From Nemertoderma westbladi (Eukaryota > Animalia > Xenacoelomorpha), in NCBI GenBank assembly GCA_032718475.1, contig JAUCBJ010002752.1, positions 1 to 64,000 of the forward strand: DNA of 64,000 nucleotides, written 5' to 3'. A program made the translations under genes and the position numbers. Positions 4,940 through 41,800 of the stretch are shown in pieces. How positions within the stretch are numbered: position 1 is the first letter of the stretch; each line of letters opens with the position of its first letter. The notes beneath the pieces are model-generated. The model had not been told where the DNA came from. It saw nothing but the letters and a program-made list of their open reading frames with translations, and searched no databases.

Positions 4940-5029
4940 ATTAGTAGTTATGGAATTGTAGTTATGCACTTAAACTTTCTAGAACAACCTAATAATGACG
5001 GAAATACATAGTAAAGTAAATGTATGGCG
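4940..5029 (+). repeat. Left copy of the 90-bp target-site duplication of the RTE LINE
   Basis: ATTAGTAGTTATGG...GTAAATGTATGGCG is identical to 7445-7534. Confidence 0.93.
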
Positions 5030-7426
5030 AATGTTCTGGCAAATGAGCTGTTTTCGGCCAATACAAATTTCCAAAAACGACCTGGAAAGCTGTACACCCA
5101 TGTGGGACCCAGTGGTCATAAGTCCCAGATAGACCACCTCATCTTCCGTAAGAAATACAGAGGATCAATAATTGACTGCTCTTCTCTCACAGTGCGGACA
5201 TTTCAGACTGACCATCGATTGGTTATGGGAAAGACCAAATTAAGCCTTCGTGCAAACAAGGGTCTTAAAAAGTCCACCCCACATCATGACTGGTCTACCT
5301 TGGATAAAAACCCCATTATAAAGGATAACTTTACAATTGAGGTTACAAATAGATATTCCAGTCTCATAAATGAAGAAATGAACCACTGTGAGAAATATAC
5401 CCAGTTTGCTGCAGCAGTAAAGTCAGCTGCAAAGAAAACTGTTCCTCTAAAGCCACGGAAGTTGAAGAAGATCCCCTGGGCAGACCAGCGCATTCTAGAC
5501 CTGCGAGAGGCATTGAACAAAGCCCAAAGAGAGTATCGTAGCCGACGTACAACTTCTGCAAAAAATGCAGTGAAAGCTTCAGTGAAATCTCTAAACAAGC
5601 AATACTCGATTAATAAAGCAAAGCTTATCAGCGAGCAGGTTGATACTATCAATGCTGCTGACGAAAGCAGGAAATCTGCTGAAGCCTGGCAAGCAATCAA
5701 CCTGCTCTCTGGAAGAAAAAGCCGACCAACTGCCAAGGTGAAGGCTGATTCTCCAGCCGACCGCTTGGCAGGCTGGAAGTCTCATTTCGAGAAATTGCTA
5801 AATAATGATCGAGAACTGACTGACGATTTCACTGTAAAGCCTGTGTCACACACAATACTCTCAGACATCCCAATTGGTGACATAACATTCGAAGAGGTCT
5901 TAACTGCTTCGAATGACATTAAAACCAATAGGGCATCTGGTGTTGATGATGTGCCTCCCGAGGTCTTTAAGATCAGAGAATGCCTTCAACTAGCCCACCC
6001 TATCCTAGCAGAAATGTACCGCACTAAGATTGCACCACAAGAACTGAAGACTAATCGGCTAACACCCGTTCCAAAGAAGGGCAACCTCTCCTATTTTGGT
6101 TCATATCGTGGAATTAGTCTAATCTCAATTGCAGCTAAATTATTCAACAGAATAATGCTGAATCGCATTAGGGATCCTGTAGAAAGACTCTTGCGTGGGA
6201 ATCAAAATGGGTTTCGAAAAGGTAGAGGTACCTTTGAACCCATTCTGGCACTTAGAAGGATTATTGAAGAGGTTTCTACAAAGAAAGACAGACATTTGGC
6301 TGTCATATTTGTGGATTTCTTCAAGGCCTTCGATTCCGTGTCACGCCCACGCATGTTCCAAATTCTTCAGGCATATGGGATCCCCAATGAGATCATTAAT
6401 GCAATCAGATCAGTATATGACGGTTCCACGACCTTTGTATCCACTACTGATGGAGACACAGACCCATTTGAGGTTCTCTGGGGTGTCCTTCAAGGAGACA
6501 CATTAGCCCCGTTCCTCTTCATTATTGTGGTGGACTATGTGCTGCGGACATCACTCGATCTTCATGAAGCTGATGGGGTGGAAATATCTCCACCATCAGG
6601 TAGCCGTAGACGTGGTTCCCCAGCAGAACATCTAACCGACCTTGACTTTGCAGATGACCTTGGTTTACTGTCAGAGACATTAGAAGGAGCACAGAAGCTG
6701 CTATCTAGCTTAGAGGAGGCTGCATCTAGTGTTGGCCTCTTTGTGAATAGCACAAAGACCAAAATTCTGACAGTAAACATGGATTCAGATCAGCAGAAAA
6801 TTGATCGGGATAACATTCAATCGCTGGATGGACTGGTAAGTCATGTGAACGACTTCTGCTACCTTGGATCATGGGTTCGGAGGTCTGCTGAAGATCTCCG
6901 AATTCGCAAAGGGAAAGCCTGGTCCGCCATCCACAAGCTATCCAGGATCTGGAAGAGCTCTGACATCTCATGCTCTTTAAAGGTACGCCTTTTCCGTGCA
7001 GCAGTGGAGCCTGTGCTGCTCTATGGCAGCCCATGCTGGGCTCTAACTGCTGAAGACACCAGGTCCTTGGATGGCACATACACCAGGATGCTTCGCCGGG
7101 TGCACAACATAGCATATGATGCACACATAAGCAATGAGGTGTTATATAAATATGGTAACATCTCATTGCCAAGACCTAGCATCACCCTGCAGAAACGCCG
7201 TCTAATGCTTGCTGGGCACTGTTTCCGCCGGCAGGATCAACCTGTACACAACCTTGTGCTGTGGCAGCCTGCTGGCGAGAATAGACGTGGTGGACAGCCA
7301 ATGACTTTCCTCAAACGCCTGCTCAAGGACACAGGACTTGAGAACAGGAATGAATTAGGAAATTGTATGGCTGACCGCAAGATCTGGGGGCGCTATGTTT
7401 CTGGGGCCGCCGGCACTGCACCCTAG
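5024..7426 (+). CDS. LINE endonuclease (C-terminal part) and reverse transcriptase, 800 aa
   Basis: Motifs QIDHLI...TDHRLV (APE C-terminus), PKKG..YRGISL, QNGFRKGR, FVDFFKAFDSV, GVLQGDTLAPFLF, FADD, YLGS and LAGHCFR. The ATG lies inside the duplicated host flank. Confidence 0.92.
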   Translation: MANVLANELFSANTNFQKRPGKLYTHVGPSGHKSQIDHLIFRKKYRGSIIDCSSLTVRTFQTDHRLVMGKTKLSLRANKGLKKSTPHHDWSTLDKNPIIKDNFTIEVTNRYSSLINEEMNHCEKYTQFAAAVKSAAKKTVPLKPRKLKKIPWADQRILDLREALNKAQREYRSRRTTSAKNAVKASVKSLNKQYSINKAKLISEQVDTINAADESRKSAEAWQAINLLSGRKSRPTAKVKADSPADRLAGWKSHFEKLLNNDRELTDDFTVKPVSHTILSDIPIGDITFEEVLTASNDIKTNRASGVDDVPPEVFKIRECLQLAHPILAEMYRTKIAPQELKTNRLTPVPKKGNLSYFGSYRGISLISIAAKLFNRIMLNRIRDPVERLLRGNQNGFRKGRGTFEPILALRRIIEEVSTKKDRHLAVIFVDFFKAFDSVSRPRMFQILQAYGIPNEIINAIRSVYDGSTTFVSTTDGDTDPFEVLWGVLQGDTLAPFLFIIVVDYVLRTSLDLHEADGVEISPPSGSRRRGSPAEHLTDLDFADDLGLLSETLEGAQKLLSSLEEAASSVGLFVNSTKTKILTVNMDSDQQKIDRDNIQSLDGLVSHVNDFCYLGSWVRRSAEDLRIRKGKAWSAIHKLSRIWKSSDISCSLKVRLFRAAVEPVLLYGSPCWALTAEDTRSLDGTYTRMLRRVHNIAYDAHISNEVLYKYGNISLPRPSITLQKRRLMLAGHCFRRQDQPVHNLVLWQPAGENRRGGQPMTFLKRLLKDTGLENRNELGNCMADRKIWGRYVSGAAGTAP

Positions 7427-7444
7427 TGCAAGCCGATCATCATC
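5030..7444 (+). mobile_element. 5'-truncated RTE-clade non-LTR retrotransposon (LINE)
   Basis: Lies between 90-bp direct repeats, has a very short 3' UTR ending in (ATC)n, and encodes the C-terminal part of an APE endonuclease plus RT. Confidence 0.9.
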
Positions 7445-7534
7445 ATTAGTAGTTATGGAATTGTAGTTATGCACTTAAACTTTCTAGAACAACCTAATAA
7501 TGACGGAAATACATAGTAAAGTAAATGTATGGCG
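7445..7534 (+). repeat. Right copy of the 90-bp target-site duplication of the RTE LINE
   Basis: Identical to 4940-5029. Confidence 0.93.
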
Positions 7535-7866: not shown

Positions 7867-8027
7867 CTTGACATTTTAACCTCCCCAGTGTATTTCATCT
7901 CCTCGAATTCTGTCTGCATTCTGTCTTTATCTTCTCTCAATCTCACCGTTCTCTTCTCGTTTTCAAATTTCAACTCTTCCAGATGTTGCTGGGTGTCCTC
8001 CTGGTTCTCAAATCGTAGGACAACCTC
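7867..8027 (-). CDS. CCDC151: CCDC151 exon 8
   Basis: tag|GAG GTT GTC ... ATG TCA AG|gtttgt; encodes EVVLRFENQEDTQQHLEELKFENEKRTVRLREDKDRMQTEFEEMKYTGEVKMS. Confidence 0.85.
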
Positions 8028-11000
8028 CTAGTTATAAGTAATAAAGATTATTTTTACTTTATGTAGCCCTACCGGTAAGTAAGTATTATATATGAAGATA
8101 ACAGTTAGTGTGGCTTTAAAAAAATGGTGACTTCCTTCCAAAAGTATCAGACAGCCTGAATATAACGCAAAGGTCCGGAAACCCACCTGAGTATCAGAAA
8201 CACCGGTGGCCTGTTTGATTACAATAAAGGCTTCCTCAAAGGACTGGATTTTTTTCTCCGTTTCGTAAGAATATCCAATAACTCTCCCGTCACCGCTGGC
8301 ACTGCCGCTGTCGTCAGCAGCAACTGATGCTCTCTGAAAATAAAACAATAAATTAATATATTAGCACATCAATATTAGTAATACTCCATAAAACAATATC
8401 TTCTCACTGTGTTTCACCTGTAACCTCCACTCACTGTCCCACGTGTCCCACCAGTAATCCCATCTCAGTTTGTCCCACTTGCAATTTCCTCTCACTGTGT
8501 CCCACCCACCTGGAACCTCCATTCACTGTGTCCGCACCTGTAACCTCCACTCACTGTGTCCCCACCTGGAACCTCCACTCACTGTGCGTAATCCCCACTA
8601 TCACTATGTCTCCCACCACACTGTGTCCCACCTATAATCTCCACTCACTGTGCCCCCACCTGTAACCACCACTCACTGTGTCCCCACCTGTAACCATCAC
8701 TCACTGTGTCCCCACCTGTAACCACCACTCACTGTGTCCCCACCTGTAACCACGAGTCACTGTGTCCCCACCTGTAACCACGAGTCACTGTGTCCCACCT
8801 ACAATCTCCACTCACTGTGTCCCCACCTGTAACCATCACTCACTGTGTCCCCACCTGTAACCATCACTCACTGTGTCCCCACCTGTAACCACCACTCACT
8901 GTGTCCCCACCTGTAACCACCACTCACTGTGTCCCCACCTGTAACCACCACTCACTGTGTCCCCACCTGTAATCTCCACTCACCCACCTGTAACCACCAC
9001 TCACTGTTCCCACCTATAATCTCCACTCACTGTGTCCCTTCCTCTAACCACCACTCACTGTGTCCCTTCCTCTAACCACCACTCACTGTTCCCACCTATA
9101 ATCTCCACTCACTGTGTCCCTTCCTCTAACCACCACTCACTGTGTCCCTTCCTCTAACCACCACTCACTGTGTCCTCACCTGTACTGTAACCACCACTCA
9201 CTGTGTCCCCACCTGTAACCACCACTCACTGTGTCCCCACCTGTAACCACCACTCACTGTGTCCCCAACTGTAATCTCCACTCACCCACCTGTAGCCATC
9301 ACTCACTGTGTCCCATCTATAATCTACACTCACTGTGTCCCCACCTGTAACCACCACTCAATGTGTCCCCACCTGTAACCACCACTCACTGTGCCCCCAC
9401 CTGTATCCACCACACACTGTGTCCCCACCTGTAACCACCACTCACTGTGCCCCCACCTGTATCCACCACACACTGTGTCCCCACCTGTAACCACCACTCA
9501 CTGTGCCCCCACCTGTAACCACCACTCACTGTGTCCCCACCTGTAACCACCACTCACTGTGTCCACACCTGTAACCACGAGTCACTGTGTCCCCACCTGT
9601 ATCCACGAGTCACTGTGTCCCCACCTGTAACCACCACTCACTGTGTCCCACCTATAATCTCCACTCACTGTGTCCCCACCTGTAACCACCACTCACTGTG
9701 TCCCCACCTGTAATCCCCACTCACTATGTCTCCCACCTGTAATCTCCACTCACCCACCTGTAACCACCACTCACTGTTCCCACCTATAATCTCCACTCAC
9801 TGTGTCCCTTCCTCTAACCACCACTCACTGTGCCCCTTCCTCTAACCACCACTCACTGTGTCCTCACCTGTACTGTAACCACCACTCACTGTGTTCCCAT
9901 CTGTAACCACCACTCACTGTGTGCCCACCTGTAACCACCACTCACTGTGTCCCCACCTGTTACCACGAGTCACTGTGTCCCCACCTGTAACCACCACTCA
10001 CTGTGTCCCACCTATAATCTCCACTCACTGTGTCCCCACCTGTAACCACCACTCACTGTGTCCCACCTATAATCTGCACTCACTGTGTCCCTTCCTCTAG
10101 CCACCACTCACTGTGTCCCTTCCTCTAACCACCACTCACTGTGTCCTCACCTGTACTGTAACCACCACTCACTGTGTCCCACCTATAATCTCCACTCACT
10201 GTGTCCCCACCTGTAACCACCACTCACTGTGTCCCCACCTGTAACCACCACTCACTGTGCCCCCACCTGCATCCACCACACACTGTGTCCTCACCTGTAA
10301 CCACGAGTCACTGTGTCCCCACCTGTAACCACCACTCACTGTGTCCCCACCTGTAACCACCACTCACTGTGCCCCCACCTGTAACCACCACTCACTGTGT
10401 CCCCACCTGTAACCACCACTCACTGTGTCCCCACCTGTAACCACCACTCACTGTGTCCCCACCTGTAATCTCCACTCACCCACCTGTAACCACCACTCAC
10501 TGTTCCCACCTATAATCTCCACTCACTGTGCCCCTTCCTCTAACCACCACTCACTGTGCCCCTTCCTCTAACCACCACTCACTGTGCCCCTTCCTCTAAC
10601 CACCACTCACTGTGTCCTCACCTGTACTGTAACCACCACTCACTGTGTTCCCATCTGTAACCACCACTCACTGTGTCCCCACCTGTAACCACCACTCACT
10701 GTGTCCCCACCTGTTACCACGAGTCACTGTGTCCCCACCTGTAACCACCACTCACTGTGTCCCACCTAGAACCACCACTCACTGTGTTCCCATCTGAAAA
10801 CACCACTCAATGTGTCCCCACCTGTAACCACCACTCACTGTGTCCCCACCTGTAACCACCACTCACTGTGTCCCACCTATAATCTCCACTCACTGTGTCC
10901 CTTCCTCTAACCACCACTCACTGTGTCCCACCTAGAACCACCACTCACAGTGTTCCCATCTGAAAACACCACTCAATGTGTCCCCACCTGTAACCACCAC

Positions 11001-14000
11001 TCACTGTGTCCCCACCTGTTACCACGAATCACTGTGTCCCCACCTGTAACCACCACTCACTGTGTCCCACCTATAATCTCCACTCACTGTGTCCCCACCT
11101 GTAACCACCACTCACTGTGTCCCTTCCTCTAACCACCACTCACTGTGTCCCTTCCTCTAACCACCACTCACTGTGTCCCTTCCTCTAACCACCACTCACT
11201 GTGTCCCTTCCTCTAACCACCACTCACTGTGTCCTCACCTGTATTGTAACCACCACTCACTGTGTCCCACCTATAATCTCCACTCACTGTGTCCCCACCT
11301 GTAACCACCACTCACTGTGTCCCCGCCTGTAACCACGAGTCACTGTGTCCCCACCTGTAACCACCACTCACTGTGCCCCCACCTGTATCCAGCACACACT
11401 GTGTCCCCACCTGTAACCACCACTCACTGTGTCCCACCTATAATCTCCACTCACTGTGTCCCCACCTGTAACCACCACTCACTGTGCCCCCACCTGTAAC
11501 CTCCACTCACTGTGTCCCCACCTGTAACCTCCACTCACTGTGTCTCCCACCTGTAATCCTCTCTCACTGCGTCCCAACCTCCACTCACCTGTAACCTCAC
11601 TCACTATGTCCCACCTGGAACCTCCACTCACTGTGTGTAATCCCCACTCACTATGTCTCCCACCTGTAATCTCCACTCACCCACCTGTAACCACCATTCA
11701 CTGTGTCCCCACCTGTAACCACCACTCACTGTGTTCCCACCTGTAACCTCAACTCACTGTGTTCCCACCTGTAACCTCTACTCACTGTGTCCCACCTATA
11801 ATATCCACTGACTGTGTCCCAACCTCCACGCACTGTGTCTCCACCTGTTACCTCCACTCACTGTGTCTCCCACCTGAAATCCTTTCTCACTGTGTCCCAA
11901 CCTCCACTCACTGTGTCCCCACCTGTAACCTCAACTCACTGTGTTCCCACCTGTAACCTCTACTCACTGTGTCCCACCTATAATATCCACTGACTGTGTC
12001 CCAACCTCCACGCACTGTGTCCCCACCTGTTACCTCCACTCACTGTGTCTCCCACCTGAAATCCTTTCTCACTGTGTCCCTACCTCCACTCACTGTGTCC
12101 CCACCTGTAACCTCAACTCACTGTGTTCCCACCTGTAACCTCTACTCACTGTGTCCCACCTATAATATCCACTGACTGTGTCCCAACCTCCACGCACTGT
12201 GTCCCCACCTGTTACCTCCACTCACTGTGTCTCCCACCTGAAATCCTTTCTCACTGTGTCCCAACCTCCACTCACCTGTAACCTCTACTCACTATTTCCC
12301 ACCTATAACCTCCACTCGTTGTGTACCACCTGTAACCTACACTCACTGTGTCCGCACCTGTAACCTCCACTCGCTGTGTCCCTCCCACCTGAACCTGTTA
12401 CCTCCACTCACTGTGTCTCCCACCTGTAATCCTCTCTCACAGTGTCCCAACCTCCACTCACCTGTAACCTCACTCACTATGTCCCACCTGGAACCTCCAC
12501 TCACTGTGCGTAATCCCCACTCACTATGTCTCCCACCACACTGTGTCCCACCTATAATCTCCACTCACTGTGCCCCCACCTGTAACCACCACTCACTGTG
12601 TCCCCACCTGTAACCATCACTCACTGTGTCCCCACCTGTAACCACCACTCACTGTGTCCCCACCTGTAACTACGAGTCACTGTGTCCCCACCTGTATCCA
12701 CGAGTCACTGTGTCCCCACCTGTAACCACCATTCACTGTGTCCCACCTATAATCTCCACTCACTGTGTCCCCACCTGTAATCTCCACTCACCCACCTGTA
12801 ACCACCATTCACTGTTCCCACCTATAATCTCCACTCACTGTGCCCCTTCCTCTAACCACCACTCACTGTGCCCCTTCCTCTAACCACCACTCACTGTGTC
12901 CTCACCTGTACTGTAACCACCACTCACTGTGTTCCCATCTGTAACCACCACTCACTGTGTCCCCACCTGTAACCACCACTCACTGTGTCCCCACCCGTTA
13001 CCACGAGTCACTGTGTCCCCACCTGTAACCACCACTCACTGTGTCCCACCTAGAACCACCACTCACTGTGTTCCCATCTGAAAACACCACTCACTGTGTC
13101 CCCACCTGTAACCACCACTCACTGTGTCCCCACCTGTAACCACCACTCACTGTGTCCTCACCTGTATTGTAACCACCACTCACTGTGTCCCCACCTGTAA
13201 CCACCACTCACTGTGTCCCTCACACCTGTAACCACCACACACTGTGTCCCCACCTGTAACCACCACTCACTGTGTCCCCACCTGTAACCACGAGTCACTG
13301 TGTCCCCACCTGTAACCACCACTCACTGTGTCCCCACCTGTAACCACGAGTCACTGTGTCCCACCTATAATCTCCACTCACTGTGTCCCCACCTGTAACC
13401 ACCACTCACTGTGTCCCACCTAGAACCACCACTCACTGTGTTCCCATCTGAAAACACCACTCACTGTGTCCCCACCTGTAACCACCACTCACTGTGTCCC
13501 CACCTGTAACCACCACTCACTGTGTCCCACCTATAATCTCCACTCACTGTGTCTCCCACCTGTAACCACCACTCACTGTGTCCCCACCTGTAATCCTCTC
13601 TCACTGTGTCCCAACCTCCACTCACCTGTAACCTCCACTCACTATGTCCCACCTGGAACCTCAACTCCCTGTGTGTAATCCCTACTCACTATGTCTCCCA
13701 CCTGTAATCTCCACTCACCCACCTGTAACCTCCACTCACTGTGTCTCCCACCTGTAATCCTCTCTCACTGCGTCCCAACCTCCACTCACCTGTAACCTCA
13801 CTCACTATGTCCCACCGGGAACCTCCACTCACTGTGTGTAATCCCCACTCACTATGTCTCCCACCTGTAATCTCCACTCACCCACCTGTAACCACCACTC
13901 ACTGTGTCCCCACCTGTAACCACCACTCACTGTGTTCCCACCTGTAACCTCAACTCACTGTGTTCCCACCTGTAACCTCTACTCACTGTGTCCCACCTAT

Positions 14001-17000
14001 AATCTCCACTGACTGTGTCCCAACCTCCACGCACTGTGTCCCCACCTGTTACCTCCACTCACTGTGTCTCCCACCTGAAATCCTTTCTCACTGTGTCCCA
14101 ACCTCCACTCACTGTGTCCCCACCTGTAACCTCAACTCACTGTGTTCCCACCTGTAACCTCTACTCACTGTGTCCCACCTATAATATCCACTGACTGTGT
14201 CCCAACCTCCACGCACTGTGTCCCCACCTGTTACCTCCACTCACTGTGTCTCCCACCTGAAATCCTTTCTCACTGTGTCCCACCCTCCACGCACTGTGTC
14301 CCAACCTGTAACCTCCACTCACTGTGTCCCTCCCACCTGTAACCTCCACTCGCTGTGTCCTACCTGTAACCTCCACTCACTGTGTCCCACCTGTAACCTT
14401 CACTCACTGTGTCTGCACCAGCCTGTAACCTCCACTCGCTGTGCCCCTCCCACCTGTAACCTCCACTCACTGTGTCCGCACCTGTAACCTCCACTCGCTG
14501 TGTCCTTCCCACCTGTACCTGTAACCTACACTCACTGTATCCCACCTGTAACCTCCACTCGCTGTGTCCCTCCCACCTGTAACCTCCACTCACTGTGTCC
14601 GCACCTGTAACCTTCACTCGCTGTGTCCCTCCCACCTGTAACCTACACTCACTGTGTCCCACCTGTAACCTCCACTCGCTGTGTCCCTCCCACCTGTAAC
14701 CTCCACTCGCTGTGTCCCACCTGTAACCTCCACTCGCTGTGTCCCACCTGTAACCTCCACTCACTGTGTCCGCACCTGTAACCTTCACTCGTTGTGTCCC
14801 TCCCACCTGTAACCTACACTCACTGTGTCCCACCTGTAACCTCCACTCGCTGTGTCCCTCCCACCTGTAACCTCCACTCGCTGTGTCCCACCTGTGACCT
14901 CCACTCACCGTGTCCCACCTGTAACCTTCACTCACTGTGTCCGCACCAGCCTGTAACCTCCACTCGCTGTGTCCCTCCCACCTGTAACCTCCACTCGCTG
15001 TGTCCCACCTGTAACCTCCAATCACTGTGTCCGCACCTGTAATCTTCACTCGCTGTGTCCCTCCCACCTGTAACCTACACTCACTGTGTCCCACCTGTAA
15101 CCTCCACTCGCTGTGCCACTCCCACCTGTAACCTCCACTCACTGTGTCCGCACCTTTAACCTCCACTCGCTGTGTTCCCACCTGTAACATCCACTCACTG
15201 TCCCACATGACCCACCTGTAACCTCCACTCGCTGTGTTCCCACCTGTAACATCCACTCACTGTCCCACATGACCCACCTGTAACCTCCACTCGCTGTGTT
15301 CCCACCTGTAACCTCCACTCACTGTCCCACATGACCCTCCTGTAACCTCCACTCACTGTCCCACATGACCCACCTGTAACCTCCTCTCACTACGTTCATG
15401 TAGTTTCCTCTCTTCCAGTTGTTGTCTCAGATTCTTTAGATGTGCCTCTCTGTCGCGCCTACCCTCGTATACCAATGTCTCTTGTCTCGTTAACTCTTGT
15501 CTCGCAATATCACGCGAGATCTGCGCGTCGTTACTCATCGTTTTTAGATTGTTCAACTCTTCTTCTAGTTCTTGGATCTCCTGTTCCATGTCATCGAGCT
15601 GCTCGTAAATAATTTATCAAATTTAAGGCAGATTTAGATAAAATAAAAAATAAAACAAAAGTAATTTAATTTAACATATATTAAAGTGTTACAAATATAT
15701 ATTGTTTAATTATTTTAGCCAAAAATACAATATCAGTTATAATGGAAACACACGCAATAAACCCTATTTTGTTTAAATCATCCTTAGTTACCATGGTATT
15801 TGGACTAGGGTAACCATTAAAGGAGATTCCGTCTTAATAATAATGTAGTCAGTCAGTCTTCCTTCGGGTCCAGTGAGATTGGGCAATTTAGTGAAATGTT
15901 GACGTTGTCGCTACGAATAACCGGATGACCGAGATCAAAACCCGATATTGTTTTAGCGTACACGATACGACAACAGATCTATAATACCTGATGGATAAAT
16001 ACTTCCAATTTCGAAATAATTTTACTTAGTCCGCTCCCTTATGATATGACTGCACCGACATGAATTTCCTTAGGATTACGAATAGACCAACTCAAGTTAC
16101 ACGTATGATATTTTCATCGTAATTTGGCTTTATAAGCTTTACAACTTACTCTGTTATGGTGTGTTTTCTGATCGGTTTTCAAGGAATGTAATATCTTCTC
16201 GTATGTCCTATTGAGTCTCTCAGCTTCTTGTGTTTTTAATTGGGCTTTGTCCAATCTGAAAGAGCGGAAAAACCAACAAATTATATATAAATAAATCATA
16301 TTAGCTTTCCATGACGGCGACTATAAAATATGAGAAGAATGATAAACATCGCCGAACTCAGCAACGCATAGATAGATAGCGCATCAATGCTATTGGCAGG
16401 TATTTGGGTGAAAATTGGTTTTATAGATTGAATAATTTCCCAGATGATTGGTATTATTGCCATTTGGGAGATTCGTAAATTGTTCACGTTGTCTATTTAT
16501 GTTATTCACCTGTCGCTTTTTTTTTGCCCCATCTCGTTTTTACCTGCGCTATTTACCTATTCTCCAACTGGCACTTTTTTTGCCCCATCTCGTTTTTACC
16601 CGCGCTATTTACCTATTCTCCAACTGGCACTTTTTTGCCCCATCACGGATTTACCCGCGCTATTTACCTATTCTCCAACTGGCACTTTTTTGCCCCATCA
16701 CGTTTTTACCCGCGCTATTTACCTATTCTCCAACTGGCATTTTTTTTCCCCATCTCGTTTTTACCCGCGCTATTTACCTGTTCTCCAACTCCCACTGGCA
16801 CTTTTTTTACCCCATCTCGCTTTTACCCGCGCTATTTACCTGTTCTCCAACTGCCACTGGCACTTTTTTTTGCCCCATTTCGTTTTTACCCGCGCTACGC
16901 TATTTACCTGTTCTTCAACTGCCACTGGCACTTTTTTTGCCCATCTCGTTTTTACCCGCGCTATTTACCTGTTCTCCAACTGCCACTGGCACTTTTTTTT

Positions 17001-20000
17001 TGCCCCATTTCGTTTTTACCCGCGCTACGCTATTTACCTGTTCTCCAACTGCCACTGGCACTTTTTTTGCCCATCTCGTTTTTCCCTAGCTATTTACCTG
17101 TTCTCCAACTCTCACTGGCACTTTTTTGCCCCATTTCGTTTTTACCCGCGCTACGCTATTTACCTGTTCTCCAACTGCCACTGGCACTTTTTTTGCCCAT
17201 CTCGTTTTTCCCTAGCTATTTACCTGTTCTCCAACTCTCACTGGCACTTTTTTGCCCCATCTCGTTTTTACCCGCGCTATTTACCTATTCTCCAACTGGT
17301 ACTTTTTTTGCCCCATTTCGTTTTTACCCGCACTATTTACCAATTATCCAATTGGCACTTTTTTCCCCATCACGTTTTTACCCGCGCTATTTACCTATTC
17401 TCCAACTGGCATTTTTTTTGCCCATCTCATTTTTACCCGCGCTATTTACCTCTTCTCCAACTGCCACTGGCACTTTTTTGCCCATTTCGTTTTTACCCGC
17501 ACTATTTACATGTTCTCAAACTGCCACTGGCACTTTTTTTGCCCCATTTTGTTTTTACCCGCGCTATTTACCAATTATCCAACTGGCACTTTTTTGCCCC
17601 ATCACGGATTTACCCGCGCTATTTACCTATTCTCCAACTGGCAATTTTTTGCCCCATCACGTTTTTACCCGCGCTATTTACCTATTCTCCACCTGGCACT
17701 TTTTTTTGCCCCATCTCGTTTTTACCCGCGCTATTTACCTGTTTTCCAACTGGCACTTTTTTTGCCCCATCTCATTTTTACCCGCGCTATTTACCTATTC
17801 TCCAACTGGCACCCTTTTTGCCCCATCTCGTATGTACCCGCGCTATTTACCTATTCTCCTACTGGCACTTTTTTTTGCCCCATATCGTTTTACCCGCGCT
17901 ATTTACCTGTTCTCCAACTGTCACTTTTTTTCTCCATCTCGATTTTACCCGCGCTATTTACCTATTCTCCAACTAGCGCTTTTTTGCCCCATCTCGTTTT
18001 TACACGCGCTATTTACCTATTCTCCAACTGGCACCTTTTTTGCCCCATCTCGTTTTTACCCGCGCTATTTACCTGTTCTCCAACTCCCACTGGCACTGTT
18101 TTGCCCCATCTCGTTTTTACCCGCGCTATTCACCTGTTCTCCAACTTCCACTGGCACTTTTTTTGCCCCATCTCGTTTTTACAAGCGCTATTTACCTATT
18201 CTCCAACTGGCACCTTTTTTGCCCCATCTCGTTTTTACCCGCGCTATTTGTTAAATGTGAATAATAATCAGTTTGATCGAGTTATTATATTACAGTTTAA
18301 CCAATATATATAGTCAGACAGTTGAATCCAGTTAGATATAGAATCATGAACTGTAGCCTACTGATTACCGGTACGCGGTAACCATACTACCGTACCTATA
18401 TCAGTAACCAACACATACCGTCATCCAGGTACTGTCTACAGTATTAACAATCTTCCGTTTCTTTCCTTTTTAGTTTGTTCCACAAATAAATTCTAACTAT
18501 AAAAAAAGGTATTCTGGCCATAAGTCAATTATGGTCTTAAGTTTCAACTTGTACAAATACAAATCGGATAGTCATTCAATTAGTTACTTTCAGTTTGTTA
18601 CATTCATTGAAATTTATGCTATCGGCTTGTCAAACATGACCAGTTAGATTTTCCAAAAGCTCATACATCACAAACGGGTCGTTCAATATGCGTTTTAATA
18701 AAACAACGGACTGACTTTTTGCTTTGGTCAGTGTATCAGCAATCTGCAACTTTGTTGGAATCCATTTCAGTTTTTTAATATCAACCACGAGTTCTTTAAT
18801 AAATGCAAAGTCAATTGCCAGTCGTTTCTCTATCGGAATCTTCCCATTATATAAATCCTGAACCAATCCTTTGTGATCGGAGTAAAAATGACAATCAATT
18901 AGATCAGATCGCAATATAGACTTCATAAACATCTGAATATATCGACCCATATCGACACCCTCTACCAGGGCAAACGTCTCGGCAGATAATGTACTTTTAG
19001 TAACACGCCGACAACAACGGCTAGCCCAATATAACAAATAATGTCCCCAGAAAATATAGATAGCTAAGCGAGACGGGTTACCAAACGAAGAATCAACGAA
19101 TATATAAAGATTAGGAATTGTTGAACGCACTGCTTCGGGAGGATCTGCGGTTTCTGGATGGTAATATTTCAATATAACCTTTTCAGACTTTATCTTCCTT
19201 ACTGTTTTGTTTAATAACGCGATATTGTCCGCGTTTGGAGAGTTAATCTGAGATGAACTCCCTACAATAAATCCGATATCTGGTCTAGTGTTTGTTGAAA
19301 CCCACATTAGCTTCCCCAATGTTGATTTGAAATATGATTTGCACGATAACTCACTATCTTTGTCAATAACCTCAAAATCAATGCCTTCAATATACTGTTC
19401 TTGTGATATTTCATAACTACCATTATCTAGCTGGCGAATGCATACTCCCAGAAACTTAGTCCATGTATCTTTGATTCGCCGGACTTTACCCACTTTCAAC
19501 AAATGTGCAATGCCTTCACGAACCTTAGGAAGACCATTCACACCACCTATGAGAAGGTCATCAACGTGTGTTGCTATCATACCAACAAGTCTATCATGTT
19601 CATCATAATTTGTATACAACGCTGGATCAAATTGGTTTTGAAAGTTACCCAGTACAAACAGCTCTTCCTGCAACTTATGATACCAATACCTACAGGCATC
19701 CTGTAACCCATAGACGGCTTTATTTAATTTCCAGAATACATTCGCAGCTTTGATTTCTTTTGATTTGGTGCTTAATTTGTTTATGTACTCTGGAGGTGGT
19801 ACAGCATAAATAACTCGATCACTTTCAAAGTTATTACTCTGAAGAAAGGCCGTTTTAATATCAATGACCCACAAATCCCACTTAAATAAAGAAGCCATGG
19901 ATAACAGAGTTCGTATCGATGTCTTGTCACAAGTTGGCGAAAATGAGATTGGATCTTCTTTATCCTGAAATCCTTTAACTACCAAACGGGCCTTTGTAAA

Positions 20001-23000
20001 TTTTATACCTTCCACATCTTTCTCCGTAATAACCCAGCGAGTCTGAACAATATTAGCTTTACTAGGAACTTCATAGACTTCCGTATATACATCATTCTGC
20101 AGCCAGTTTAACAGTTCCTGTTCCTTGGCTGCCTCAGTGTCTAGCAAAGGTGTAGGTCTTTGTTCGCCAAAATAACCATAGAACTCTGGCGGTTTGCGCT
20201 CTCTTGTAGGATATTTCGAAGAAACTTCCGAAAGAATTGGTTCTTCCATGACCTCACAATTATCAATACTAGTCGATTCCATAGACGGCATCATTGCGTC
20301 ATCGTAATTAGCACTGGACGCATTCAAATCGTCAGAGTATGACTCAGAAGTTGAACCATTGGGATTGACTTGTTTGACTTTATTTATCGCCGGTAATTCT
20401 TCTGGATCAGAAGTGCCAACACTTCCTGAGTGGCTATAATCTTCAACTATCATGTCTGTGTCTTCGGTTTCTTTGAACTCACTTCCAAATCCCAGTTTGG
20501 CACTATCGTGTAGCTTAATTTTTGATCTATGACAACGGATATAGCGAGAGCCATGACCAACAAGTATTTCCGAACCTTTAACAGCAACAACCTTCGCTGG
20601 ACCACACCACTTGCCCGCAGTGTTATAATAATATACTGCATCTCCATTGACAACCTCACTATTAGATGGTCGTATGTTTCTTTGTAATGCTCTACGAACC
20701 CGACTAGAAGCATCCGATTTTGCAAATTGTTCCCTCACATCATTCAATAAAGCGATATGTTCAATAACAGATTTGCTAACTGATTGTGAATTATCTAAAG
20801 CACATAAGTTGTCCGTCAAAACTCCTCCTATATTCGGGCCCCTGCCAAACATTATTTGGTGTGGAGAAAAGCCATTATGATTTGGCCAAGCATTCTTTAC
20901 AAACGTAGCCATAGTTAATATTTTATAATCAGAATAGCTCTGATTATCCGATTTTATTCGACAATATATATCCTTAATTAAACCATTATGTCTCTCCGTT
21001 ATTCCGTTGCTGAATGGAGAGTATGGTGCCGTAACATCATGTGTCATATTAAGCTTATTGCACAACTCAGTAAAGCTTATAGCAACGAACTCGCCACCAT
21101 TATCTGTGAAGACTGATTTGTTAGGTGGACCAAAAATAGAACACCATTTATCCAATAATGCACTCTGAACACTTGTGGACAATTTATTTGGCAGTATCAT
21201 TGTCATACTATAGCGAGAGAATAAGTCTACAACGTGAAGAACAGGCTTACCATGGCTATAATTCAACTCTTCCATAAAAAATAAATCTAAACCGATAATA
21301 TCGTTACATGTTTTGCCAAGAGGCAGTGAAACAATTGGATTAGATGGTTTTCTTCTTCCATGTATTTTACATTCAGCACAATCCTTCATTACTTCATCAA
21401 CAAAAGTTATATAGGACTCACCAACAAACAAGCCAGACTGTTCGATCAGCTTAATTAGCGTTTGTTTCGACGGATGAGCGAACTGTTTATGAAGTTTCAG
21501 AATCTCCTTATATGATAACTGCAATTGAGATTTCGGATTCTGCAATTTCCCACGTTCGGTTTCACTAGAATCGATGCGATTATCACCGTTGTCAGCTCTT
21601 TTATCAGCTGTATCTGTGATTAATGCAGTATTAATAAGCCTTTCACCTGGAATTAGTGGAATCGCACAGTGACCAGATATTAACTCAACAAGTTGCACTG
21701 CTGATCCATTAATTGTTGCAATATTTGCCGAAATATCTAGCATTACCTGAAGTTTGGCCATTGTTGGTCGAGAGAGTAGTAGTGGCAATGATCCCTCTAT
21801 AACGTCAACAGATATTTTATACGTAATATCATTAACCGGAATATCAAGAATATAGTTCTGTTTTGCAATCTTTTCTTCTCCACCGCCAAATATATATACT
21901 GAATAAGTGGTACGAGAAGAAGGATTTACATTGAATATAGCCTTATAAGTTTCAAGCCATTCAGTTCCAGAAACAGTCTTCGTGCAAGCAGTGTCCAAAA
22001 TGGCATAAATGTCAGTTGTTTTTCTAATGAAGTTATTAGTTTTCTTGGTCGGTTTTGCAAGAAACACGCTATTTTTAAACAGATGTTTAAGAAAGTAAAC
22101 ATTTCGTTCATTATCTCCAGAATCTTCTCTACACCCAATGAGCATCTTTTCATTATCAGATTCTGATTCATTATGCGGACAGAGATCATCTGTATGGAGT
22201 ACAGACTCACATACATTACATTGAGATTTATGGGGACAATCCCGTTGAAAGTGATATATCGAATCGCAGACTCGGCAGCGGTTGTTTTTATTAGGGCCCT
22301 TGACATTTGAATTAGTAAATGGTAAAGGTAGTTTGCTGGTGTTTATCGAGTTTGGCTTAAACGATCTACCGGTGCCAGTACCTAGGTTGGATTTGGATTG
22401 AAAACGTGACGGTTTCTTATTCCTAAAATTAGCCTCCAAAGCAATTTCAGTTTTTAGTTCTTCGGAATCAAATCTCGATTCATCGGTGCCTAACTTGGAA
22501 TTACCAGATCCAATATCCGACATCATTCTCAAAATATGTCGTTTCACGTCATTAAATTCAAGTTTAGCAGTTGCCAAAATCATTTTGCGCTCACTATTAC
22601 TTAAATTGGATTTATGTATCAATTCGGCCGCCAAAATAGAATCGTCAAACGTAAGACCAAATTCTTTTAGGTTACTCACCATACTCTCGAATTTTATCAC
22701 AAAGTCACGCACATTTTCATTGGAATTTCGACAAAAATTCCGAAATATAACAAAATTGTTGTAGGCATCTTCCTCTTTTTCTTTTAAAAACGTTTCATCC
22801 AATTGTCTAATAAGAGAAGCTAAACCGCCATCCACCGCTAATGCGGGAACGTCTAAATCCAAAGCTTTATCTTTGGCAACACCACGAAGATTAAGAATTA
22901 CTGTAGCTGCTTGTTTCGCCGCTGAAGTTTCTGTTATCGATTCCCAAACTAAGATTTCTTTCTTCCACCGACGATAGTTTGGATTCTTTCCAGATGGATC

Positions 23001-26000
23001 AAATACGGGAGGTGGTATACGATTTGAATTATTACCCGTTGCCATATTCTGATTACAGGATTGCCGTTAATCGTAGTATGTAACCAGAAACACCTTGTCT
23101 GCAGTCACCGGTACGGTAGGCCTAGCACCTAGGCCTATACAATCAGACGGTACAGATCAACTGGCACTGTCGTTTCGTAGGAATTATCAGTGAGGTTGAC
23201 AGGTTAAAATGTACCGGTACGGTACCGTAGGCTACCGTACAGAAGTTTCAGAATGCCAGAAATCCCTGCGAAAAATTGATTCTCACAATACCGATAGGCC
23301 TACCGGTAAATAATTAAGAAAGCGTCATCACGCCAGATCCGCCATCACGGAATTGAGGTTAAACGTTAAACGTCGAACTGGAGCGCCATCACGCCTGCGC
23401 CATCACGCAGAATTCAAATGTACCGTCAGACCGTAAAAACTTGCGCCGTCACGCCTGCGCCATCACGCATTTAAACCGTAATAAAGTGTAAGCTCTGCTA
23501 CCATTGTTAAATGTGAATAATAATCAGTTTGATCGAGTTATTATATTACAGTTTAACCAATATATATAGTCAGACAGTTGAATCCAGTTAGATATAGAAT
23601 CATGAACTGTAGCCTACTGATTACCGGTACGCGGTAACCATACTACCGTACCTATATCAGTAACCAACACATACCGTCATCCAGGTACTGTCTACAGTAT
23701 TAACACTATTTACCTGTTCTCCAACTCCCACTGGCACTTTTTTGCCCCATCTCTTTTTTACCCGCGCTATTCACCTGTTCTCCAACTGCCACTGGCACTT
23801 TTTTGCCCCATCTCGTTTTTACCCGCGCTATTTACCTGTTCTCCAACTGCCACTGGCACTTTTTTTGCCCCATCTCGTTTTTACCCGCGCTATTTACCTG
23901 TTCTCCAACTGCCACGGCACTTTTTTTGCCCCATTTCGTTTTTACCCGCGCTATTTACCTGTTCTCCAACTGCCACTGGCACTTTTTTTGCCCCATTTCG
24001 TTTTTACCCGCGCTACTTACCTGTTCTCCAACTGCCACTGGCACTTTTTTTGCCCCATCTCGTTTTTACCAGCGCTATTTACCTGTTCTCCAACTGCCAC
24101 TGGCACTTTTTTTGCCCCATTTCGTTTTTACCCGCACTATTTACCAATTATCCAGCACTTTTTTGCCCCATCACGTTTTTACCCGCGCTATTTACCTATT
24201 CTCCAACTGGCACATTTTTTTCCCCCATCTCTTTTTTACACGCGCTAATTACCTATTCTCCAACTGGCACTTTTTTTTACCCCATCTCGTTTTTAACCGC
24301 GCTATTTACCTATTCTCCAACTAGCACTTTTTTGCCCCATCTCGTTTTTACCCGCGCTATTTACCTGTTTTCCAACTGGCACTTTTTTTGCCCCATCTCG
24401 TTTTTACCCGCGCTATTTACCTATTCTCCTACTGGCACTTTTTTTGTCCCATATCGTTTTACCCGCGCTATTTACCTGTTCTCCAACTGGCACTTTTTTT
24501 GCTTCATCTCGATTTTACCCGCGCTATTTACCTATTCTCCAACTAGAGCTTTTTTGCCCCATCTCGTTTTTACCCGCGCTATTTACCTATTCTCCAACTG
24601 GCACTTTTTTTGCCCCATCTCGATTTTACCCGCGCTATTTACCTATTCTCCAACTGGCACTTTTTTGCCCCATCTCGTTTTACCCGCGCTCTTTACCTGT
24701 TCACCAACTGGCACTTTTTTGCTCCATCTCGATTTTACCCGCGCTATTTACCTATTCTCCACTGGCACTTTTTTTGCCCCATCTCGTTTTTACCCGCGCT
24801 ATTTACCTATTCTCCAACTGGCGCTTTTTTTGACCCATCTCGTTTTTACCCGCGCTATTTACCTGTTTTCCAACTGGCGCTTTTTTTGCCCCATCTCGTT
24901 TTTACCCGCGCTATTTACCTGTTTTCCAACTGGCGCTTTTTTTGCCCCATCTCGTTTTTACCCGCGCTATTTACCTGTTTTCCAACTGGCGCTTTTTTTG
25001 CCCCATCTCGTTTTTACCCGCGCTATTTACCTGTTTTCCAACTGGCGCTTTTTTTGCCCCATCTCGTTTTTACCAGCGTCCGTATCCTTAACTTCCTTTT
25101 CCGCCTCCTCCATTTCCTCTAATTGTTTTCGTTTCTCCGCCGTTTCTTTCTCTTTCTTTTCCTGAATAGATAATAATGTTTACCGAATTCCCGCCTTTTG
25201 TAAAACTACAATATTAATCAATATGAATGCCGGTTTATCATTCCCTATTCGAGAAACAAAACTAATTGAATCCAAAATTATATTCATCGAAAACATCAGA
25301 ATAATATATATACCGTGTATATTTAAATCAAATAGTTTAAGAAATAATTTAAGTAACAATAAAGTATGTATAAATGAAACTGGGAGGCACTTTTCTGTAG
25401 CAGAAAATAACTTTAAGGGTGAGGTACAAAGAAATTGTTTTTATATAGATTATAATACGGGATACGATTAAATGTAGTTACAAAAAACGATACCGCTATT
25501 CAATAGCTCTTTAAGTTTTCGAGATATCACAATTCCCATTTAGTAACACCTATTGAAATTACTACTATACTAATGAATATAATAACAAATCCATTCCCTA
25601 TTTCAACATTTTTTTTTTGAGAAATATATTTTTACAACTTTAAAACAGTAGGACACCACATACATTCTTTAAGCAATGGGTCTGAAACTTTCTGTGAGTC
25701 TGAAAATTTCCGTGGGATGACGTATAAGATGACGTTTTGAAAGTTTTTAATAAAATTTAATACTATTTCTAATAAACCTAAAAATTATCTGTCACAAATT
25801 TGCAGCACCACCTAGCGGCTCAGAATAATTTTTCCAAAAATTTGTCTGTAACTGTTGCCACAACCTTACTCTATCTTATAAAATAACTTTCAATTTCTGG
25901 AAGAGTCAAAACTATGAAATCTTAGGATTTCAAGTAGGTCCTACAACCATCGTTACCGGTACAGTATTAAATAGGCCTAGTGAAAATAAAAATATTCTCG

Positions 26001-27198
26001 TAAAACATGTTGAATAATAACTTATGCACATATAAACCAAATGGTGTTAAGAGTGAGGAATCGAACAGTTTGTCTGAAAATGTTGACACCCCCCCCCCCC
26101 CCCCCTCAACACGTCCTGTAACGAATTATTACATACACCTGGCAGCATAACGCGGTACGATACGGTTCACTAAACGTCGTGCGACCAAGAAGTCTCAGTA
26201 TCGTGTTATTAATTAACTTACACTTTGGTTTTTAAGGGCATTTAGCTTCTTTATATCATCACAAACTTTATCGTTCATTATCACTATAGCTTCTCTCGAT
26301 GTCTTACCCTTCATTGCAGCTCTGTCCTCAAACCTATTCTCGAATGCTTCGTCGAGAATGCGCTCGTCGCCCTGATAAAAACAAATAATATTGGATTGAA
26401 TAATGTACTCATTATTGCTTTAAATAGGAAATAAGTAAATACCCGGGATTCCTCAGTCTATGTTCTACTTAATATTCAAACCCCATAATTTTTATTGTTT
26501 AAAATTTTAATAATATCTTATATAATTTGCAGCAATGTAAGATTATTCTTAACTAATAATATTGAGTCAGTTTGTCCAAATTATCATCTTACAAAACTTT
26601 AGTTGTGTAGTGATGTATTGGCTACAAGATTACCTGGTACTCCAGGTATCCTTGGTTGTTGCCATGCCTACTGATAGAAAAGTGACGTTGCAAAAAATAT
26701 AATTATTATTATAATTGTTAATATCAACTCTCTAACCAGTAATCAAACACTAATCTCTAAATCAGTGCAGATTATTTCTATTTATACTATCTCTATCATA
26801 TGGGGTCCACGCCATTCATATAATTTTATTTAAATTAGAAATTACCTGGTCAGCTTCTGCAGCATCCTTATGTAACTCACGCGCATCTTTCCTAAGTTGC
26901 GCTATTTTCTCTTTATTTTTCTTAATCGTCCATTCCGCACTCTCATAATATGCTTTTCTATCGCCGTCTGTAATTCCATGCAAGTTAAAATTAATATATA
27001 GCGGGCAAATATATGAACCGGCGATTTAGTAACTTTTAGGTTACTACTAAATTAACCGACAAACTCTCAAGGAAGTTCGTAATTTATAACCAACACGGCA
27101 ACATAAATTATTTACTTACCCAATAAAGCAATTTTCCTTGTCAGCTCTGAAATCTGAGACGTCAGGCTTTGGTTAGAACCCGGTTTCCTAGGCGGCAT
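7867..27198 (-). CDS. CCDC151: Outer dynein arm docking complex subunit CCDC151/ODAD3, exons 1-8 (further exons presumably left of the window)
   Basis: Joining 27120-27198, 26846-26967, 26222-26371, 25031-25161, 16150-16255, 15374-15598, 8187-8333 and 7867-8027 gives all GT-AG introns in consistent phase. The protein has [73 protein letters not shown] and EEMKYTGE, which match CCDC151 blocks as I recall them ([43 protein letters not shown]). Confidence 0.88.
8187..8333 (-). CDS. CCDC151: CCDC151 exon 7
   Basis: ttttcag|AGA GCA ... ACT CAG|gtgggt; 147 nt; encodes RASVAADD...[11 protein letters not shown]. Confidence 0.85.
8403..15391 (-). repeat. About 7-kb array of a roughly 28-bp unit derived from the exon 6 / intron 6 junction
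   Basis: Minus-strand unit GGGGACACAGTGAGTGG(T/A)GGTTACAG|GT. The exon end is AGTGAGAGGAGGTTACAG|GTGGGT (17/18 match to proximal units). The array fills nearly all of intron 6. Confidence 0.95.
15374..15598 (-). CDS. CCDC151: CCDC151 exon 6
   Basis: cag|CTC GAT GAC ATG ... TTA CAG|gtgggt; 225 nt; coiled coil LDDMEQEIQELEEEL...HERSERRLQ. Confidence 0.87.
16150..16255 (-). CDS. CCDC151: CCDC151 exon 5
   Basis: ttcag|A TTG GAC AAA ... AAC AGA|gtaagt; encodes (R)[35 protein letters not shown]. Confidence 0.87.
16515..18248 (-). repeat. About 56-bp array derived from the exon 4 / intron 4 junction (distal block)
   Basis: Minus-strand unit GGTAAAAACGAGATGGGGCAAAAAAAGTGCCAGTTGGAGAA(C/T)AG|GTAAATAGCGCG; interrupted by the LTR element. 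Confidence 0.95.
18249..18449 (-). repeat. 3' LTR (201 bp)
   Basis: Identical by eye to 23505-23705. Confidence 0.95.
18451..18471 (-). other. Polypurine tract
   Basis: Minus strand AAAAAGGAAAGAAACGGAAGA directly before the 3' LTR. Confidence 0.8.
18630..23045 (-). CDS. Copia gag-pol polyprotein, 1471 aa, uninterrupted
   Basis: Two CX2CX4HX4C knuckles; protease ILDTAC; integrase H..H/CAEC, DLF, TDNGGEF, ERHN; RT KARLVVKGF, DIKTAFL, KAVYGL, HVDD, TRPDI; RNase H VDSSF, SAETFAL, QIADTLTK. Confidence 0.96.
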   Translation of the reverse strand: MATGNNSNRIPPPVFDPSGKNPNYRRWKKEILVWESITETSAAKQAATVILNLRGVAKDKALDLDVPALAVDGGLASLIRQLDETFLKEKEEDAYNNFVIFRNFCRNSNENVRDFVIKFESMVSNLKEFGLTFDDSILAAELIHKSNLSNSERKMILATAKLEFNDVKRHILRMMSDIGSGNSKLGTDESRFDSEELKTEIALEANFRNKKPSRFQSKSNLGTGTGRSFKPNSINTSKLPLPFTNSNVKGPNKNNRCRVCDSIYHFQRDCPHKSQCNVCESVLHTDDLCPHNESESDNEKMLIGCREDSGDNERNVYFLKHLFKNSVFLAKPTKKTNNFIRKTTDIYAILDTACTKTVSGTEWLETYKAIFNVNPSSRTTYSVYIFGGGEEKIAKQNYILDIPVNDITYKISVDVIEGSLPLLLSRPTMAKLQVMLDISANIATINGSAVQLVELISGHCAIPLIPGERLINTALITDTADKRADNGDNRIDSSETERGKLQNPKSQLQLSYKEILKLHKQFAHPSKQTLIKLIEQSGLFVGESYITFVDEVMKDCAECKIHGRRKPSNPIVSLPLGKTCNDIIGLDLFFMEELNYSHGKPVLHVVDLFSRYSMTMILPNKLSTSVQSALLDKWCSIFGPPNKSVFTDNGGEFVAISFTELCNKLNMTHDVTAPYSPFSNGITERHNGLIKDIYCRIKSDNQSYSDYKILTMATFVKNAWPNHNGFSPHQIMFGRGPNIGGVLTDNLCALDNSQSVSKSVIEHIALLNDVREQFAKSDASSRVRRALQRNIRPSNSEVVNGDAVYYYNTAGKWCGPAKVVAVKGSEILVGHGSRYIRCHRSKIKLHDSAKLGFGSEFKETEDTDMIVEDYSHSGSVGTSDPEELPAINKVKQVNPNGSTSESYSDDLNASSANYDDAMMPSMESTSIDNCEVMEEPILSEVSSKYPTRERKPPEFYGYFGEQRPTPLLDTEAAKEQELLNWLQNDVYTEVYEVPSKANIVQTRWVITEKDVEGIKFTKARLVVKGFQDKEDPISFSPTCDKTSIRTLLSMASLFKWDLWVIDIKTAFLQSNNFESDRVIYAVPPPEYINKLSTKSKEIKAANVFWKLNKAVYGLQDACRYWYHKLQEELFVLGNFQNQFDPALYTNYDEHDRLVGMIATHVDDLLIGGVNGLPKVREGIAHLLKVGKVRRIKDTWTKFLGVCIRQLDNGSYEISQEQYIEGIDFEVIDKDSELSCKSYFKSTLGKLMWVSTNTRPDIGFIVGSSSQINSPNADNIALLNKTVRKIKSEKVILKYYHPETADPPEAVRSTIPNLYIFVDSSFGNPSRLAIYIFWGHYLLYWASRCCRRVTKSTLSAETFALVEGVDMGRYIQMFMKSILRSDLIDCHFYSDHKGLVQDLYNGKIPIEKRLAIDFAFIKELVVDIKKLKWIPTKLQIADTLTKAKSQSVVLLKRILNDPFVMYELLENLTGHV
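23492..23503 (-). other. Primer-binding site complementary to the 3' end of initiator tRNA-Met
   Basis: Minus strand TGGTAGCAGAGC, 1 nt inside the 5' LTR. Confidence 0.88.
23505..23705 (-). repeat. 5' LTR (201 bp)
   Basis: TG...CA termini; identical by eye to 18249-18449. Confidence 0.95.
23706..25074 (-). repeat. About 56-bp array derived from the exon 4 / intron 4 junction (proximal block; the first unit overlaps exon 4)
   Basis: Period 56 (for example 24965 to 25021). The unit is the last 44 nt of exon 4 plus the first 12 nt of the intron. Confidence 0.95.
25031..25161 (-). CDS. CCDC151: CCDC151 exon 4
   Basis: ttcag|GAA AAG ... GAC GCT GGT AAA AAC GAG ATG GGG CAA AAA AAG CGC CAG TTG GAA AAC AG|gtaaat. 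Phase 2 matches exon 5 and yields the conserved [10 protein letters not shown]. Confidence 0.85.
26222..26371 (-). CDS. CCDC151: CCDC151 exon 3
   Basis: cag|GGC GAC GAG ... CAA AGT|gtaagt; encodes GDERILDEAF...KKLNALKNQS. Confidence 0.87.
26846..26967 (-). CDS. CCDC151: CCDC151 exon 2
   Basis: cag|AC GGC GAT AGA AAA ... GAC CAG|gtaat; encodes [20 protein letters not shown]. Confidence 0.9.
27120..27198 (-). CDS. CCDC151: CCDC151 exon 1 (coding part)
   Basis: ATG CCG CCT ... TTA TTG G|gtaagt; encodes [26 protein letters not shown]. Confidence 0.85.
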
Positions 27199-41777: not shown

Positions 41778-41800
41778 TTACATTACTGGCATCCTAAAAC

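Follow-up and report, generated by a model that had tools for sequence, protein, structure and literature searches.

How does one gene come to carry two introns with tandem copies of the ends of their own upstream exons, each copy reproducing a 5' splice site, and how would such a gene still be spliced? We addressed this question for the CCDC151/ODAD3 locus of the xenacoelomorph Nemertoderma westbladi, which lies on the minus strand of contig JAUCBJ010002752.1 (assembly GCA_032718475.1); the window, that is the whole stretch of DNA analysed, comprises the 64,000 nucleotides from position 1 to 64,000 of that contig and represents a single haplotype. Introns 4 and 6 of the gene each hold a minisatellite (arrays A and B, respectively) with head-to-tail units inside the range of about 10-160 bp, a first unit lying across the predicted exon-intron boundary and a donor reiterated along the array. 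The pair thus appears, on these predicted boundaries, to be an unusually large case of the already described junction-spanning minisatellites. We consider it quite probable that the arrays reflect ordinary minisatellite birth and expansion across donors, tolerated since the first donor is intact in each case.

Two arrays that repeat an exon end and its donor

The unit of array A measures 56 bp and joins the final 44 nt of exon 4 to the first 12 nt of intron 4, recurring head-to-tail with a period of 55-56. All 44 exon bases are repeated (44/44), and homology to the exon ends just upstream of the unit, save for a 3-base match at this edge which may be the mark of a breakpoint. Beyond the first donor there are 53 further donor copies, 52 of which retain the GT as scored by script, and the final one does so too by inspection. 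Copies 1-3 are identical to the end of exon 4 at 44/44 positions and the remaining 50 at 32-43 of the 44, from which we infer that the exon copy itself took part in the latest duplications. The features of this region, in the order of transcription, are:

25031..25161, minus strand: CCDC151 exon 4 (predicted), which contributes its final 44 nt (25074-25031) to the array A unit
23706..25074, minus strand: array A, 5' block, with the first donor GT at 25030 and 23 copies
18249..23705, minus strand: Ty1/copia long terminal repeat (LTR) retrotransposon of 5,457 nt, in the same orientation as CCDC151
16509..18248, minus strand: array A, 3' block, with 30 more donor copies in units of 47-69 nt
16256..16508, minus strand: remainder of intron 4, free of the repeat and including the acceptor, GC content 0.34
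16150..16255, minus strand: CCDC151 exon 5 (predicted from homology and frame)

An earlier sequence-only reading of this DNA had described both large introns as built from such arrays. For intron 4 this stands in part: of its 8,775 nt, array A contributes 3,065 nt (35%) and an ordinary tail 253 nt, while 5,457 nt (62%) belong to the copia element, which that reading had overlooked. The LTRs of the element (23705-23505 and 18449-18249) are identical over 201/201 nt and bounded by a TG...CA pair, its target duplication is 5 nt, and its open frame of 1,470 codons encodes an integrase domain (rve, at 587-677) upstream of RVT_2 (at 985-1222); the LTR pair, the 5-bp duplication and the integrase preceding RVT_2 are those of the Ty1/copia group. 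Judged by these features the element is intact and very young, and its insertion came after array A had formed.

For intron 6 the earlier description is borne out, as array B occupies 6,956 of its 7,040 nt (99%). Here the final 18 bases of exon 6 are repeated with one fixed change (17/18), and upstream of the unit the exon homology stops. Hence the further claim of the earlier reading, that each array starts inside the upstream exon and copies its end together with the donor, holds for both introns. The first and the next-to-last units of array B are 34 bp long and alike, those of the interior are mostly 27-28 bp (period 28), and higher-order repeats range from 370 to 3,920 nt. This points to 34 bp as the founder unit and to 27-28 bp as the derived interior form, in the usual pattern of a homogenised interior and older edges; of the unit sizes of 56 and 28 bp given earlier, the first is retained and the second applies to the derived form. 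The second donor copy, which is the nearest to exon 6, has GA in place of GT, and GT is kept at 188 of 209 later split points, a count in which the rule used to split the units fixes the G. The corresponding features are:

15374..15598, minus strand: CCDC151 exon 6 (predicted), which contributes its final 18 nt (15391-15374) to the array B unit
8402..15391, minus strand: array B, comprising about 240-250 units, with the GT of its first donor at 15373
8334..8401, minus strand: AT-rich remainder of intron 6, free of the repeat and including the acceptor, GC content 0.19
8187..8333, minus strand: CCDC151 exon 7 (predicted from homology and frame)

Gene model and origin of the repeated bases

Every exon boundary of CCDC151 used here is predicted from homology and frame, including those of the exons lying outside the array region:

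27120..27198, minus strand: exon 1 (predicted, 79 nt from the ATG)
26846..26967, minus strand: exon 2 (predicted)
26222..26371, minus strand: exon 3 (predicted)
7867..8027, minus strand: exon 8 (predicted), the last one detected in the window

Joined together the eight exons yield 373 codons without a stop and all are bounded by GT-AG; with the first donor of each array the exons join in frame and align gap-free with the homologues. The predicted protein shares 156-158 identities across about 370 aligned residues with four full-length homologues, three of which contain the ODAD1_CC domain; individual exons of the window matched no family above the cut-off. A HMMER search with exon 6 recovered 53 proteins, and a word-indexed homologue search with the same exon recovered none of 3,580 candidates. 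The cluster of one full-length homologue contains an Aplysia protein named CCDC151, another HMMER match is the turtle CCDC151, and the homology to proteins so named is colinear. When a profile was built from 13 homologues its top eight matches in the window were the eight exons, and it found no match in the window for the last third of the protein; either intron 8 would be longer than 7.8 kb or the gene is cut. The junctions 25031/16255 and 15374/8333 proposed in the earlier reading match those predicted here, and the residue count across junction 6 is equal in three of eight homologues (L001, L003 and L004).

The complete introns 1-7 measure 152, 474, 1060, 8775, 551, 7040 and 159 nt, the five without arrays thereby falling within the 0.15-1.1 kb that had been given for them; with the arrays collapsed, introns 4 and 6 would measure 254 and 84 nt. 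The equation of large introns with array introns survives only partly, as introns 4 and 6 do hold arrays but intron 8 is large too, and the argument is to some extent circular. The intron 8 stretch contains a long interspersed nuclear element (LINE) and a 39-bp array without a copy of its donor. The LINE-type reverse transcriptase frame within 4940-7534 (plus strand; 803 codons, RVT_1) has an exact direct repeat of 90 nt on either side (4940-5029 and 7445-7534), which resembles a target duplication of unusual length, and it probably lies inside CCDC151 intron 8; further pieces of a similar element are present at about 63200-64000. The 39-40-bp array at 1-2149 is very homogeneous (96% matches, at least 54 copies) and continues beyond the window, and no splice junction was identified in its unit.

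Scanning metagenomes with the exon 6 alignment, with 30 of 64 parts covered, gave eight loci, of which four are spliced transcripts, one is genomic with comparable introns (L005), one is a distant genomic sequence and two are single-exon fragments. In L005, the sole genomic homologue with comparable introns, those at the corresponding places are about 100 nt long with no repeat called, and the positions of introns 4, 5 and 6 differ between it and the window. When L005 260-930 is set against introns 3-6 of the window, positions around junctions 4-6 are shifted by 1-10 codons; both genes have introns 7 and 8 in common, and L005 intron 7 appears to begin with GC.

The units of arrays A and B are unrelated in sequence (p 0.52-0.57 against dinucleotide shuffles), as the earlier reading had held, and unit anatomy, homologue comparison and this shuffle test agree in supporting its proposal that two exon-end-plus-donor arrays arose independently. 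Among the 14 residues of exon 4 that are repeated, 6-7 are identical in each of seven homologues, the corresponding figure for the other 29 residues of the exon being 4-9 (the eighth homologue had no usable segment for this comparison), and the end of exon 6 agrees with the family alignment. Since the repeated exon bases encode conserved residues, the arrays came from the exons. Neither unit recurs above shuffled scores in the 53.8 kb of the window outside both arrays, and the metagenome contigs contained no match to an exact 25-mer taken from unit A.

A 27-bp repeat at 53151-54400 does resemble the array B unit, with p 0.002-0.023 per pair; it is one of 45-54 pairs, and the similarity is not significant after correction, the longest exact run being 11 nt. 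An 8-mer is common to three of ten array units, namely those of array B, the 27-bp repeat and a 68-bp array, and such sharing occurred in 1.2% of 2,000 shuffles; the same test with a 7-mer gave 14%. The shared 8-mer may be a repeat-prone core. The 8-base core of array B, 53151-54400 and 44368-44893 is also present in three similar dispersed stretches at 30324, 45781 and 60066.

Splicing of the arrays and competing explanations

Based on these observations we propose that each array began as a duplication, of 56 or 34 bp, across a donor, which would have left the exon and its first donor intact. Slippage and unequal exchange would then have multiplied the copies, a course indicated in array B by its higher-order repeats and its older edge units; the latest rounds in array A would have involved the exon copy. 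The spliceosome would pick the most upstream donor, as it does experimentally in human F7, and transcripts spliced from later repeat donors would meet a premature stop and be suppressed or destroyed. Read-through from the exon runs into an in-frame stop after 4 nt of intron 4 and after 21 nt of intron 6, which places all repeat copies of the donor beyond a stop; for a phase-2 donor of the type found at intron 4 this placement is automatic. Most latent donors within introns are located beyond an in-frame stop and normally escape selection by the splicing machinery (PMC3510495). If the first donor is used, which by analogy is likely, and transcripts from later donors are removed, then the arrays would be nearly neutral, the only burden perhaps being a small loss through wasted transcripts.

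Conservation of the donor was compared with that of other unit positions. Random sets of positions were as highly conserved as the donor core in fractions of 0.09-0.11 (array A) and 0.06-0.14 (array B), which is not significant even though cutting the units at the donor biases its conservation upward; a purging of duplicate donors was not seen in this test of the two arrays. Recursive splicing was considered, as AG/GT is present in each unit, and set aside, since the donor windows are 70-74% purine and no pyrimidine tract was seen by inspection.

Several points weigh against this account. In the first place, competition among donors appears real at the level of sequence: a donor matrix gives scores equal to or above that of the first donor to 22 of the 235 GT sites of array A and to 25 of the 1,002 of array B, and later donors are used to some degree in IFI6 and CBS (PMC1557585) and in ABCA7 (PMC5954066). 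The preference for the upstream donor was established in mammalian cells and not in Nemertoderma, and donor choice in CCDC151 is itself a prediction from DNA. The slight excess conservation of donor positions points, if anywhere, to retention. Furthermore, under a null of uniform seeding over the collapsed gene of 3,855 nt, with seeds lying wholly in an exon excluded, a donor is spanned in 10.6% of 56-nt and 6.0% of 34-nt placements, and both arrays would hit one in only 0.6% of cases (0.006), or at least two of three in 1.9% (0.019) if the 39-bp array at 1-2149 is added. Two donor hits in one gene are therefore modestly unlikely under chance, which is uncomfortable for our proposal and suggestive, and both arrays are of the donor type though the null makes acceptor-spanning seeds as likely.

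This excess is what would be expected if transcription or splicing biased seeding towards donors, for instance through R-loops or polymerase pausing at the 5' splice sites of germline-expressed genes, an explanation to which we give a small though real chance. Its general form, which we hold to be unlikely in the same measure, is that animal minisatellites are born at 5' splice sites well above chance with the exon end re-seeding them, genes with two or three independent donor arrays, such as CCDC151, being the visible tail of a general mutational bias at donors. Consistent with it, array A was repeatedly seeded from the exon edge and single amphioxus genes carry multiple junction repeats (PMC3087553, PMC3902484), the mechanism of which is called unclear in PMC3087553. 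However, CCDC151 was selected post hoc for its pattern from about 250,000 windows, six of its eight donors lack an array (including donor 7, which shares nine bases with donor 6), the amphioxus repeats span acceptors as well (PMC3087553), and the occurrence of the array B 8-mer in two arrays without an identified junction speaks for a seed at the DNA level. Unrelated arrays are abundant in the window, and in 8 of the 10 array units examined no splice junction was identified. A coupling of amplification to splicing, as well as protection by U1 binding, had been offered by the sequence-only reading; neither receives direct support, given the non-significant donor conservation, the copia element in the middle of array A and the majority of units in which no junction was identified.

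Two possible seeds were examined and not adopted. Donors 4 and 6 have the highest share of G over -35..+15 among the eight (0.36 and 0.40 against 0.12-0.26), but counting exon bases alone nearly erases the gap (0.34 and 0.34 against up to 0.31). G-quadruplex motifs of the three-G type are present in neither array, those of the two-G type number 140 in array B and none in array A, and no enrichment of G-quadruplexes at splice sites was seen in fly or nematode (PMC9065059).

Rather improbable, in our estimate, is that selection keeps the arrays, either because U1 sites protect long introns or because later donors tune CCDC151 through nonsense-mediated decay. The retention of GT in most copies of both arrays, the slightly higher conservation of the donor core, the position of all repeat-copy donors past a stop and the alteration of splicing by the length of a donor-adjacent repeat in ABCA7 (PMC5954066) would fit such selection. 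Against this, the excess conservation is not significant and is inflated by cutting the units at the donor, the introns owe their length to nothing but the arrays and the copia element, which makes protection circular, and the donor copy nearest exon 6 lacks GT; moreover, a phase-2 donor of this type is automatically followed at once by a stop, and the introns of L005 are short and free of arrays.

We think it very improbable that array B derives from a dispersed minisatellite family or repeat-prone core which only resembles the exon end. The likeness to the 27-bp repeat, the 8-mer held in common with that repeat, the 68-bp array and the dispersed stretches, and the one fixed base at which interior units depart from the exon are compatible with this origin, yet that likeness fails correction with its short exact run, the 18 exon bases stand in donor register and encode conserved residues, and no unit copy rises above shuffled scores outside the arrays. 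That the introns themselves were born by tandem duplication around AG/GT, a model of intron gain which the earlier reading had named as a parallel, or that the exon boundaries are otherwise than modelled, can be dismissed as barely credible: introns 4, 5 and 6 may be lineage-specific, judging from their different positions in L005, and AG/GT occurs in every unit, but the intron part of the units matches the start of the next exon at only 1/12 and 4/16 bases, which rules out such a gain, the tails are unlike the exon ends (shuffles scoring as high in 86% and 99.5% of cases), the homologous genomic frames P0015 and P0051 appear to break at the place of junction 6, and the exon model is in frame and colinear.

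With ordinary minisatellite birth as the preferred reading, the locus offers a large and clean natural case for asking how the spliceosome chooses one donor among 50-200 look-alikes, and arrays that repeat donors are a caution for annotation. A genome-wide excess at donors, if true, would link splicing to the birthplaces of tandem repeats, the mechanism of which is left open by PMC3087553. Such an excess cannot be demonstrated from a single window, and no published genome-wide survey of junction-spanning repeats was found in the literature searched, outside of which lie most subscription papers.

Elsewhere in the window, a C2CD3 homologue at 31724-38107 (minus strand) forms a single uninterrupted frame of 2,127 codons with the Pfam domains C2_C2CD3_N and C2, its best match reaching 42% over the matched stretch. 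In other animals C2CD3 has many introns; hence the copy in the window is a retrocopy or the product of wholesale intron loss, beside an intron-rich gene. At 52509-56704 (plus strand) there are two long overlapping frames of 1,076 and 351 codons, containing Thr/Pro-rich 9-residue and Arg/Ala/Pro 6-residue repeats, for which no Pfam family was found. A cluster of low-complexity arrays occupies 41207-43293, where the 15/32-bp blocks at 41807-42192 and 42592-43293 look mutually inverted. Several stretches of the region 46200-50300 recur two to four times, which suggests an element of about 1-1.5 kb, either duplicated locally or dispersed.

Comparison with known junction-spanning minisatellites

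Giant introns of Y-linked Drosophila genes, which the sequence-only reading had named as a near parallel, consist of simple satellites, which are not known to copy the exon end. They resemble those of CCDC151 in being repeat-filled and in belonging to axonemal genes, but the likeness is a weak one, as they reach hundreds of kilobases to megabases (PMC11207136), as against the 7-9 kb seen here.

Closer systems exist, contrary to the earlier view that none had been named: junction repeats of the amphioxus Adh3 and globin genes, lying at both 5' and 3' boundaries, have been called 'mirages' (PMC3087553), and human F7 represents a comparable kind (PMC1557585). In the amphioxus genes splicing is normal and the mechanism of origin is called unclear (PMC3087553), and in lancelet PGBD5 two junction repeats occur at two exons of a single gene, likewise leaving splicing undisturbed (PMC3902484). 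The mirages of Adh3, troponin C, BflGb6, BflGb9 and PGBD5 are thus of the same kind as the CCDC151 arrays, from which they differ in copy number (2-7 in the globins and PGBD5, 53 and about 240 in CCDC151) and in that array A, unlike them, has a copia element within it. Their splicing was checked by reverse-transcription PCR, whereas that of CCDC151 is predicted from DNA.

In human F7, IFI6 (6-16), CBS intron 13, LMNB2 and PDGF intron 4 the first minisatellite unit spans the exon-intron boundary, as it does in CCDC151; in F7, LMNB2 and PDGF splicing is confined to the first donor, two further donors are used in IFI6 and CBS, and the choice of the most upstream donor is backed by 50 constructs of F7 (PMC1557585). 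The 37-bp repeat of F7 intron 7 reiterates its donor through the intron, like both CCDC151 arrays, but includes only 4 exon bases, compared with 44 and 18. To judge from titles cited in PMC1557585, the repeat in LMNB2 takes up most of its intron, in the manner of array B, and a substitution in the second CBS repeat prevents alternate splicing, the second donor of array B being changed too. These human examples have 5-25 copies and one array per gene, compared with two arrays in CCDC151. The 25-bp repeat of ABCA7 intron 18 can comprise as many as about 427 units, and its second donor is used to some extent (PMC5954066). It shares with the CCDC151 arrays a donor in each unit and a kilobase scale, and its second-donor use leads to a premature stop (PMC5954066). 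The length of the ABCA7 array alters splicing and disease risk, and its unit is described as beginning at the GT, whereas each CCDC151 unit carries the exon end in front of the donor.

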